From Gammaproteobacteria bacterium (lineage in GTDB: Bacteria; Pseudomonadota; Gammaproteobacteria; Comchoanobacterales; Comchoanobacteraceae), in assembly GCA_036012865.1 (NCBI GenBank), contig DASCQC010000017.1:72235-136234 (forward strand): 64,000 nt of DNA, in the 5' to 3' direction. Numbering within the stretch: position 1 is the stretch's first letter; every line of letters starts with the position of its first letter. The position numbers were made by a program. Shown one piece after another: positions 51,001 to 54,000 of the stretch.

Positions 51001-54000
51001 CGGGAGGCTCAAGGTAAGTATTTTTACCTCTTAGACGACAGTCCAACAAGCGTTCAGATAGTGTCCCTTTATCGTTCCTTTCTGGCGATAAACACTGATC
51101 TATGACAGGCCTAATACTTGCTGACAACGCTTATTTATTGCAGCCAATACCAATATCATTAATGGTTATATAAAAGTTCGTTGACTCGAGAATTAAATGA
51201 AATTTATTTTATATTTCAACCTGCCTTCTTGTAAGATATCTCTGAAAATTATTGTTTGAGTTTATTTAATTCATACTCCATATTAAGATCCTAGATTGCT
51301 AATATAAATTTTAAACCTATAAAGTTACGGAGTACAAATGAACATTTATAAATACAGCCCAATCGTTCCCCTTCTATCTATTCTTTTGATGAACTCAACA
51401 GCAGTGTACGCCAATCAAAATAAATTTGTACAAACATCCATGGATGTCTCCTTAGGATCTATTCATCTTGAAGCCCTTGAAAAGGTCTATGATGATGGCT
51501 TTCTATTAAGCCAACTTGAATGGACCACTCAACAATCACCCCTATTAAGTTCAATCATAAATTTCAAATATGGTCCAAAATTTACGTTTCAATTGAAGGG
51601 TGCCTTTTCATCAAGTGGCGAAGGTGAACTGTATGATTATGACTGGATTAATCCAACAAGTTATGGGGTTACTAATTCTTTCGAAAACTGGACTCATAAA
51701 TCTCATAGTAACACTGAATTAAAATACTACTATCAAGTTGGATTCAAAGCATTTTATCAGTTATTCCATAAAAACAACCTTGACCTTAAAGGCCTCCTTA
51801 ATGCTCAAAGAATAAGCATGGACTGGGACGCAGTGGGTGGAACTTACATTTATAGCTCTGGTGGCGCAGGGTTTAGAGGAGCCTCTGGATCCTTTGCAAA
51901 TGGCGTCGGTATTAATTATGGACAAACCTGGGATACGTTTGCACTAGGAATAGATGCCAGCACTGACTATGAAGACTATTCATTTCACTTTGCTCCTCAA
52001 TACGGTATCAATACAAATATTCATGATCAAGATATACATGTACTAAGAGGTATAACCTTTAATGAAGACCTTGCCGAAAAAGGAGGCAGCACATTCTTAG
52101 CATTAGACGTTAAGGCAAACAAGCACATTAGTAAATCAATGGATGCCTATGCCGTGTATTCATATGAGAATCACTTTGAAGGTAAAGGTGAAACAGATGT
52201 GTGTGGTGCACATCAATGCTCTCATTTTTCTGGAGATGCAGCAGGGGCTTCCTTAAAGACCCATAGCTTTATGATAGGTTTGACGATTAAAGATTAGACT
52301 TATAGCACAACAAACCATAAATCAGAGAACTCTTGGCTACAGCCTTATATTTCATCACATTAAGTGCTCAAGTTTTTTCTGATTTTGGCCTATCAAATAT
52401 CAGACAACTCTTCTTTCAAAACATTCACTCCTAAACCTAATTAATCACCCAGAAGGGCTAGCCCCCTCAATAAAACTTCTCTCAATTCATTTTGACTTTA
52501 ACAATTCTTTCGCTTCTTGGTGACCGTTTTTAGCTGCTTTTTTTATCCAAAAATATCCCCTTTCTTGATCATTTTGTTCTAAATATATCTGACCCAAATA
52601 ATATTGAGCCTCGCTGTCTCCTCTTTTCGCTGATTTTTTATACCACTTCTCAGCTAATCCATTGTTTTTATCTATACCTTTTCCATTTTTGTACATCCAA
52701 CCTAAACGATTCTGGGCTAGCACCATGGCTTCATTTTCTGCTTGAAAATAAGGTCTATTCTTCAAGTAGGTTAAATGTTTTTTTAACTCTAACTGTTGAT
52801 ATATTGCCATAATATTTTTTATTTTTTCTTTATCCTGTGATAAGTATTCCCACGGGACATTGAGCTCAATAGATTCATTCAGAGTAATCAGTGTACGTGC
52901 CATCTCTAATTGTGATGCATGCTGAATAAGCTCATGCGCATAATCTTCCTGAATGAAATCTGTATTTTCTAATAAAACATCCATGGTTTGATATTTTTCT
53001 AACCATTGGACCACCACTTCTTTTTCAATGCCTGGAATACCTGGAATATTATCTGCTTTATCTCCCATTAATGATAAATAATCGACCATTTGATCAGGGT
53101 AAGCTCCATAGATCGTTTTGACTCGCTTGGCATCTTTTGGACCAAATTTTGGATCGTACATCGTAACTTCATCATTCACCAATTGAGTAAAGTCTTTATC
53201 TATTGAAGCAATAACAACTTTATAGTCATCAGCTACTGCATGATTAGTCAGTGTCGCAATGACATCATCTGCTTCGACTTGAGGCACAAATATAATCGGG
53301 TAACCATACGCCTGAATAATTTTACTCAATAAATATTGGGAAATCTTAATCTCTTTTGGGGTTGTTACACGATTAGCTTTATATTCTGGAAATTGTTTAT
53401 GGCGGGAGGTTTCTCGTTTACTTGTTGCTTGAATATCCTCAATACCTTCTAAGTTTTTTAACGCTTGTTCATAAGCTTTTTTTGAAGAAGAAGGATAATA
53501 ATAATCAGTGACCACGATAACCATGGCATTGGGATGATGTAAAACAATATCATTCAAAACATTAAGAAAACTAAAAATCACTCGAGTAGGAAAACCTTGC
53601 TGATTCACAAGAAAAGGTACTTCTGCTCGCTTGAAGGCATAATAATAAAAATTAGCATCGATCAAAACAACGTCTGCTACCTTATTATTTTCAGCCAGAT
53701 TGTACCAATAAGCTGCATTGTTATAATCATGCTGTTTAAAATACAGCCCTGCTACAGCATATTGAGATAGCAGGTTTCCACTGCGTGCTTGACTTAAAAG
53801 ATTTTCTAAATGAGTTTCTTCTCTATCAACGTTAGCTTCTAACAAAGCCGTGTGTTTAAATTCCTGCGTCGAGGCATTAACAATCTCAACAGACGAAAAA
53901 ATATAAATCAGTAATATTATTATTTTCATGCTATACGATTTCATCAAAAATCCTATTTTTATTATTATTTTCAATATATTATAGATAGATTATGAACAAA

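Follow-up and report, generated by a model that had tools for sequence, protein, structure and literature searches.

A FEN-type nuclease core with Sel1-like flanks and a predicted export leader, present in two diverged copies in a deep-branching gammaproteobacterium

The 5' nucleases of the FEN/Pol I type are familiar as enzymes that serve replication and repair in the cytoplasm. In a 64,000-nucleotide stretch of a Gammaproteobacteria bacterium genome (contig DASCQC010000017.1, positions 72,235 to 136,234 of the forward strand; hereafter, the window), we analysed a gene, paralog B, whose product carries a FEN core behind a leader-like N-terminus and next to Sel1 repeats, and which has a sister copy, paralog A, in the same window. 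The locus raises the question of whether such a protein is still a nuclease, where it would act, and from which gene it arose. We propose, at a probability of roughly one half, that B is a functional lineage-specific two-metal FEN set in a Sel1 scaffold with a Sec signal peptide, and that its ancestor most likely derived from a second copy of the 5'-nuclease region of the polA gene in this organism.

Gene, sister copy and domain architecture of paralog B

The two paralogs lie on the same strand, 5.3 kb apart, with fadA, fadB and an omptin gene between them. The genes and the putative expression signals of B are as follows.

52487..53944, minus strand: coding sequence of paralog B, 485 aa plus stop, encoding a leader, a TPR/Sel1-like repeat, the FEN core and two Sel1 repeats; exact match to HJN37866.1
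53951..53954, minus strand: ribosome-binding site (RBS) AGGA, 6 nt ahead of the B ATG at 53944
53978..54006, minus strand: sigma-70-like promoter match CCGACA-17-TATAAT, ~34 nt upstream of the B ATG; a consensus match only
45654..47207, minus strand: paralog A, sister copy of B; 517 aa counted from an ATG that has an RBS, with four Sel1 repeats at the C-terminus

A preliminary description of this locus had reported a duplicated architecture with diverged copies, and this proved to be real, as A and B have an identical domain order at 33-35% identity (tblastn, 2.8e-81). The dN/dS between A and B was left aside, because synonymous sites are saturated at ~33% protein identity. The isoelectric point (pI) of the FEN core is 9.2 (9.24) in A and 4.9 (4.94) in B, giving the two cores opposite charge; together with four versus two C-terminal repeats, this is only consistent with the sub-functionalisation that had been suggested for the pair.

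The open reading frame (ORF) of B is intact, no other ORF of at least 60 aa overlaps 52487-53944, and the exact protein is found in the public record HJN37866.1, entitled 'MAG TPA: 5'-3' exonuclease H3TH domain-containing protein [Gammaproteobacteria bacterium]' (MAG, metagenome-assembled genome). A longer ORF with a TTG start, reaching 53974, is unlikely, because the AGGA 6 nt before the ATG at 53944 and the CCGACA-17-TATAAT match at 54006-53978 both fit the ATG. The number of promoter-like matches around B was not above that in shuffled sequences.

B might also be thought a decaying duplicate or an assembly artefact without function. It has the lowest GC content among the genes examined (0.343, with 0.274 at third codon positions, GC3, as compared with 0.397 for the window), and no orthologs are known, both of which would fit such an explanation. 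However, the identical B sequence recurs on five independently assembled contigs, the longest of 197 kb, so that B is not an assembly artefact, as the preliminary description had already held. Paralog A is likewise found in an independently assembled strain contig (L083, ERZ25071281) which is 99.4-99.7% identical over window positions 41314-49078; there A, the only one of the two paralogs covered, shows four substitutions, 3 synonymous and 1 non-synonymous (K50N), and no frameshift. No frameshifts were seen, A being intact in this second strain and B having an intact 485-aa ORF with an RBS. With the fully conserved active site and confident fold of B described below, we regard this explanation as essentially excluded.

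The elements of the B protein were assigned as follows.

53873..53944, minus strand: predicted Sec-type signal peptide, residues 1-24, assigned by inspection; predicted local distance difference test score (pLDDT) below 50, with the helix at residues 4-17 detached from the body of the model
53681..53830, minus strand: putative degenerate TPR/Sel1-like repeat, residues 39-88, three helices; abuts the start of the FEN domain (VADVVLID)
53135..53680, minus strand: PIN-like N-terminal FEN domain, residues 89-270, with D96, D147, E224, D226, D227, D249 and D251, and arch residues R181, Y188, K189 and R192
53405..53503, minus strand: pre-arch insertion of ~27-33 aa, residues 148-180, following the D147 strand and preceding the helical arch; lower model confidence
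52832..53098, minus strand: H3TH domain, residues 283-371, with the site II ligands D295 and D298
53012..53032, minus strand: GIEKEVV, residues 305-311, in place of the family G-h-G-x-K-T-A; the second Gly is replaced by E307 and the conserved Lys by E309
52490..52750, minus strand: residues 399-485, made up of a connecting helix, a pair of Sel1 repeats at ~410-443 and ~444-475, and a capping helix

The Pfam domain scores of B are far beyond chance. Against the gathering scores of 34.3, 40 and 30.7 bits, respectively, 5_3_exonuc_N (PF02739) scored 111.2 bits (5e-32), the 5_3_exonuc H3TH domain (PF01367) 76.7 bits (2e-21), and Sel1 (PF08238) 53.8-58.5 bits in two stretches at the C-terminus (2e-14). 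These C-terminal repeats also matched the solved Sel1-like repeat proteins 6ok3 and 4bwr (1e-31 to 1e-33). The number of repeats, given earlier as two to three and as different from A, is two plus a capping helix, as compared with four in A. In NCBIfam, the match of B to the Pol I models is confined to their initial ~290-320 positions and does not reach their cut-offs (NF004397 and TIGR00593, 211 bits versus 720 and 192 versus 600), and the 3'-5' exonuclease and polymerase domains are absent from it. It also falls below the cut-offs of the Xni/ExoIX equivalog NF007017 (111 bits versus 261) and of the stand-alone 5'-3' exonuclease (133 versus 305), every NCBIfam 5'-3' exonuclease equivalog having a cut-off above the score of B. 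Neither A nor B matched the PADLOC defence-system models.

The order signal peptide-Sel1-FEN-Sel1 that had been assigned to B stands for the FEN core and the C-terminal Sel1 array, with the leader assigned by inspection. The N-terminal 'Sel1' part needs qualification, as Pfam calls no repeat in this module of B. The corresponding module of A is sub-threshold in Pfam (TPR_2, 23.4 bits versus 27; Sel1, 17.5 versus 30.7), but it shares 50% identity over 44 aa with that of B and has a weak match to the C-terminal Sel1 repeats of B; the helical hairpins of the B module (helices 39-86) are modelled at pLDDT 82-95. The N-terminal module of B appears to be a single degenerate TPR/Sel1-like repeat, recognisable only through the homology between A and B, the weak Sel1 match and the modelled helices.

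The core of B models as a PIN/H3TH fold. An AlphaFold2 model built from a 122-sequence alignment reached a mean pLDDT of 86.4 and a predicted template-modelling (TM) score, pTM, of 0.84; only residues 1-39 fell below a pLDDT of 50, and the segment 150-180 was modelled at 62-69. When the model was compared with the PDB using Foldseek, the top matches were FEN structures only, with a probability of 1.00. Those were led by E. coli ExoIX (TM 0.88-0.90, root-mean-square deviation ~3 A), with the plastid exonuclease 9l55/9l56 at TM 0.76-0.81 and further matches to Taq, M. smegmatis Pol1, FenA (6c33-6c36) and T5 FEN. The predicted model of A is of similar quality (pLDDT 87.3, pTM 0.85), and both paralogs carry the pre-arch insertion in the same place (~16 aa in A and ~27-33 aa in B).

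Metal sites and DNA-contact residues

To compare the residues, A and B were set against ~120 homologs column by column, and the key columns were repeated on a second set of 110. We found that the nine metal-binding carboxylates are retained in both paralogs (in B, D96, D147, E224, D226, D227, D249, D251, D295 and D298). Site I is formed in B by D96, D147, E224, D226 and D249, with equivalents in A, and the site II aspartates D251, D295 and D298 are retained as well. The arch residues Y188, K189 and R192 of the YKxxR helical-arch motif described in PMC3783174, together with R181 (numbering of B), are kept in A and B. The three motifs that had been quoted from B are all present, namely SRHKQFPEYKANR, which holds these four arch residues, SIDKD, in which D249 and D251 are retained, and MKSYSMKIIILLIYIFSSVEIVNA. 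The difference between SIDKD and the (T/S)GDKD of the family, to which attention had been drawn, is real but minor, as the position changed from Gly to Ile is Gly in only 62-76% of the homologs and both Asp are kept.

The site I carboxylate cluster defines the FEN family, in which a two-metal 'fen' class is distinguished from the ExoIX/xni class (Allen et al., PMC2650880). By these criteria, the residues of A and B assign both proteins to the two-metal 'fen' class, not to ExoIX/xni. Because all nine carboxylates are kept in A and B despite an overall identity of about one-third, the comparison argues for purifying selection on the active site and on catalysis.

The residues that hold the DNA are a different matter. 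At the second Gly of the H3TH GhG motif, which is Gly in 120 of 120 and 110 of 110 homologs, B has E307 and A has N274, and at the Lys following this motif (94% of homologs) they have E309 and N276, respectively. For the Arg of YRAF (97%), B has Y102 and A has Q81; for the Gly that precedes EADD (94%), the residues are Q222 and Y188, respectively. The canonical GhG hairpin of the H3TH domain, with its DNA phosphate contact and K+ site, is not retained in either paralog. In the structures of ExoIX with DNA, the main-chain amides of the GhG Gly residues and the side chain of R16 hydrogen-bond to DNA phosphates, and the GhG motif holds a K+ ion essential for DNA binding (PMC3783174). With the GhG Gly, the Lys and the YRAF Arg exchanged for other residues in A as well as in B, it is probable that neither paralog binds duplex DNA in quite the canonical way. 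The remodelled hairpin has a signature common to the two, GI[E/N]K[E/N], which suggests that they descended from one already-modified ancestor. The plastid exonuclease 9l56 is also without the Lys after GIG in the alignment; this indicates that the Lys is not universal in the FEN family, and that much only.

ExoIX gives both the best superposition with B and an instructive comparison, being likewise a Pol I FEN paralog with altered properties. It is without the three site II Asp (Gly/Ile/Ser instead) and keeps the GhG/K+ site, whereas B shows the reverse, an intact site II and a degraded GhG.

One possible explanation for this combination is that B is a pseudo-nuclease or binding module, in which the fold and the metal site are kept and productive duplex binding is lost; it would then be no enzyme but a Sel1 scaffold whose FEN-derived domain binds nucleic acid, nucleotides or metal. 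The replacement of all four elements in both paralogs fits this explanation, and so do the role of the lost elements as DNA phosphate contacts in ExoIX (PMC3783174), the two Glu in the hairpin loop of B together with its acidic core, and the report that ExoIX itself had no observable nuclease activity (PMC2650880). However, unless catalysis is under selection, it is difficult to account for nine carboxylates and the YKxxR motif being kept in copies that share only about one-third of their residues. The plastid exonuclease 9l56 counts against it only in so far as the Lys is not universal in the family. We consider a non-catalytic B unlikely, and prefer the hypothesis of a functional two-metal FEN.

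Predicted leader peptides, origin and distribution

The putative signal peptides of A and B were judged by inspection and hydropathy. The N-terminus is the most hydrophobic segment of B and can be divided into an n-region (MKSYSMK), an h-region (IIILLIYIFSSV, 12 hydrophobic residues) and a c-region (EIVNA), which places V at position -3 and A at position -1 of a putative cleavage site between VNA and S. The leader of A, MKKLGMFIVGMLYAGHSLLAQA followed by D, has a putative site between AQA and D; its sequence is unlike that of the B leader, but the n/h/c organisation is of the same type. Among ~115 other FEN homologs inspected, none had such a leader-like N-terminus, which was confined to A and B. 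There is no Cys in B and one in A. These features suggest that B is exported across the inner membrane.

Leader-bearing bacterial Sel1 proteins are typically periplasmic or secreted, examples being Legionella LpnE/EnhC and the Helicobacter Hcp proteins. B resembles such proteins in its predicted leader and its Sel1 repeats, its C-terminal repeats matching 6ok3 and 4bwr as described above. It differs from them in that they are pure repeat scaffolds, none of which has been reported, in the literature searched, to carry an embedded nuclease domain.

The leader bears on a further alternative, in which the N-terminus is not a working signal peptide and B is a cytoplasmic back-up FEN, like SaFEN/YpcP or Xni, whose Sel1 repeats bind a replisome or repair partner. 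Many bacteria have an autonomous FEN paralog beside Pol I (PMC2650880), A and B belong by their residues to the two-metal class, and the MAG also contains a complete Pol I, so that an arrangement of paralogs does exist. B is like the autonomous two-metal enzymes S. aureus FEN and M. smegmatis FenA (PMC2650880) in its FEN core with both metal sites intact, and FenA (6c33-6c36) is among its structural matches. These enzymes, however, are cytoplasmic, ~290-320 aa long, and devoid of a leader and of repeat domains. In A and B, whose leader sequences are unlike, the n/h/c organisation and a favourable -3/-1 site have been kept independently, and such an N-terminus is seen in none of the other FENs inspected. 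The scores of B lie far under the NCBIfam cut-offs for Xni and for the stand-alone 5'-3' exonuclease, the usual location of leader-bearing Sel1 proteins is outside the cytoplasm, and the duplex-contact residues needed for work on Okazaki flaps are degraded. Taken together, these points make a cytoplasmic back-up role quite improbable, as compared with that of an exported FEN.

For the origin of the family, the nearest relative is the full-length Pol I of the same MAG (HJN37714.1). B is homologous to its FEN domain over the whole PIN-like and H3TH core at 38-40% identity, with the nine carboxylates and YKxxR in common. The differences are that B is without the 3'-5' exonuclease and polymerase domains, adds the leader and the Sel1 flanks, has the ~30-aa pre-arch insertion, and has the H3TH Gly and Lys and the YRAF Arg replaced. 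The alignment begins at residue 1 of this Pol I (MADFILVDG, as compared with VADVVLIDA in B and VADIILLDG in A; 36-38% by BLASTP). Over trimmed columns, no other of 113 FENs comes as close to A (37%) or to B (40%) as this Pol I. In a neighbour-joining tree (200 bootstraps), A and B were sisters at 62%, and A, B and the own Pol I formed a clade at 36%. Because the own Pol I is the closest FEN and groups with A and B in this tree, it is probable that the A/B family arose from a lineage-specific duplication of the 5'-nuclease region of polA, followed by fast divergence.

We then looked at the distribution of the architecture. An exhaustive HMMER search with a full-length A+B profile was run against 1.84 billion cluster representatives, of which the best 150 matches (at least ~218 bits) were considered. 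Among these, the only full-length matches were the A cluster (1004 bits) and one fragment of B, and the remainder were long Sel1 arrays or Pol I; the best FEN-only match was P0194, which is the own Pol I HJN37714.1, at 239 bits. No other Sel1-FEN was found among the best 150, and a weaker relative of the same architecture could be hidden below ~218 bits. One candidate, P0216 (578 aa, three stretches), was rejected because it is part of a Pol I in which a FEN segment has been duplicated internally. When 5.8 billion proteins were searched by word index, once with B and once with a FEN-only A+B profile, no protein except A was found to combine PF02739/PF01367 with PF08238; A scored 560 bits, and the next matches, fragments of Pol I, scored 214 bits. 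A scan of GTDB genomes with N-terminal-repeat patterns, in a collection that does not hold the source MAG, found only a Sel1-only Chitinophagaceae locus. A metagenome scan gave 80 FEN loci with 25-42% identity, none of them with Sel1 flanks, and a viral scan gave no Sel1-FEN match. Pieces of A were also seen on many short Logan contigs, an indication that there are public sequencing runs which contain it.

In the literature we found no report of a Sel1-FEN fusion or of an exported FEN, and to our knowledge no exported FEN flanked by protein-docking repeats has been described. The parts are known; the combination of a FEN core with an export leader, Sel1 flanks, a remodelled hairpin and two diverged copies is absent outside this lineage in the databases and literature searched. 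The best non-self database matches of the organism's aspartyl-tRNA synthetase carry Marinobacter and Pseudomonadales-type names and are only 58-60% identical, too distant to place the organism in an order or family and identifying it by sequence as a deep-branching gammaproteobacterium without a close sequenced relative. This accounts for the lack of A/B orthologs, and rules out the dN/dS analysis on orthologs that had been proposed in the preliminary description.

Genomic setting and proposed function

B is monocistronic, being convergent with a gene for an omptin-family outer-membrane protease and divergent from rdgB. The following features were noted in its surroundings and elsewhere in the window.

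51338-52297, plus strand: omptin-family outer-membrane protease gene (Pfam, 4e-39), convergent with B and lying between both FEN paralogs
54885-56979, minus strand: probable envelope run upstream of B, comprising a 279-aa protein without a family assignment, a protein of the DUF2807 'adhesin head' type and an OmpA-like protein whose lipobox reads LTGC
47215-47290, upstream of A: two ATTAAA(G/T) half-sites ~12 nt apart (ATATTAAAGAATACATTAAATTT), which could be due to chance in AT-rich DNA
5243-12987, plus strand: three consecutive large ORFs of 690, 1094 and 795 aa, the second and third overlapping by 4 nt, with no Pfam or NCBIfam match; these may be an orphan operon
22546-24285, minus strand: eukaryotic-like Ser/Thr kinase, 579 aa, with the Legionella Dot/Icm effector LegK1 as best NCBIfam match (70 bits versus 550)
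21532-22461, minus strand: ORF with weak kinase/LegK1 matches, overlapping 20793-21563; the kinase ORFs in 20793-24285 (minus strand) may be tandem or split genes

The single-nucleotide polymorphisms that distinguish the strain contig L083 cluster in an epimerase gene (10 synonymous and 3 non-synonymous). The GC skew is strongly negative over the whole window (~-0.04 to -0.28), and most genes are on the minus strand. No tRNA genes or Rfam families were found in the 64 kb. The gene content of the window would fit a host-associated lifestyle, although it is no proof of one.

Several observations weigh against our proposal of a functional, exported, polA-derived FEN. With the H3TH Gly and the Lys and Arg contacts lost, binding to DNA could be severely impaired, and catalysis as a consequence, and the FEN core of B is acidic (pI 4.9), with two Glu where the family contacts phosphate. 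The case for export comes from inspection of the leader. The bootstrap values behind the origin are weak (62% for A+B and 36% with the own Pol I), and the affinity to the own Pol I could be inflated by a shared AT-rich amino-acid composition. No orthologs of A or B that could attest to long-term selection, or to the old and maintained fusion of the preliminary description, occur in any collection searched, and the neighbouring genes give B no functional link. We nevertheless prefer this proposal; of its rivals, we place the pseudo-nuclease first, the cytoplasmic back-up FEN second, and decay or artefact last.

According to the proposed mechanism, the leader would carry B across the inner membrane, and the nuclease would work away from the replication fork, in the periplasm or further out. 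Nucleic acid would be threaded and hydrolysed at its 5' ends or 5' flaps by the two-metal centre and the YKxxR arch. With the duplex grip degraded at the GhG Gly and Lys and the YRAF Arg, and with the arch region enlarged, substrate positioning would probably be unlike that of Pol I; the substrates of B may be single-stranded or otherwise atypical, or positioning may be supplied by a partner. The flanking Sel1 repeats would serve to dock it to a partner, either another protein or a component of the envelope. A and B would be sister copies of one ancestral fusion, whose own ancestor was most likely a duplicate of the polA 5'-nuclease region. Such an enzyme may serve in nucleic-acid scavenging or act on host or extracellular nucleic acid.

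A more far-reaching reading, which we put forward only tentatively and consider doubtful, is that A and B represent an unseen class of exported, possibly host-directed FEN-derived nucleases. A polA duplicate would have been captured in a secreted Sel1 scaffold and its grip remodelled for nucleic acid of the host or outside the cytoplasm, and A, which is basic, and B, which is acidic, would have different substrates or partners. Their roles could then possibly include scavenging, the degradation of immunostimulatory DNA or RNA, or damage to host DNA.

The value of these findings is limited by their source, a single uncultured deep-branching gammaproteobacterial lineage, and by functional steps that are all deduced. 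If export and activity were confirmed, B would be a case of a core replication domain recruited to an extracytoplasmic or host-interaction role, and the family would offer a natural experiment on a FEN active site without the canonical duplex-binding hairpin.

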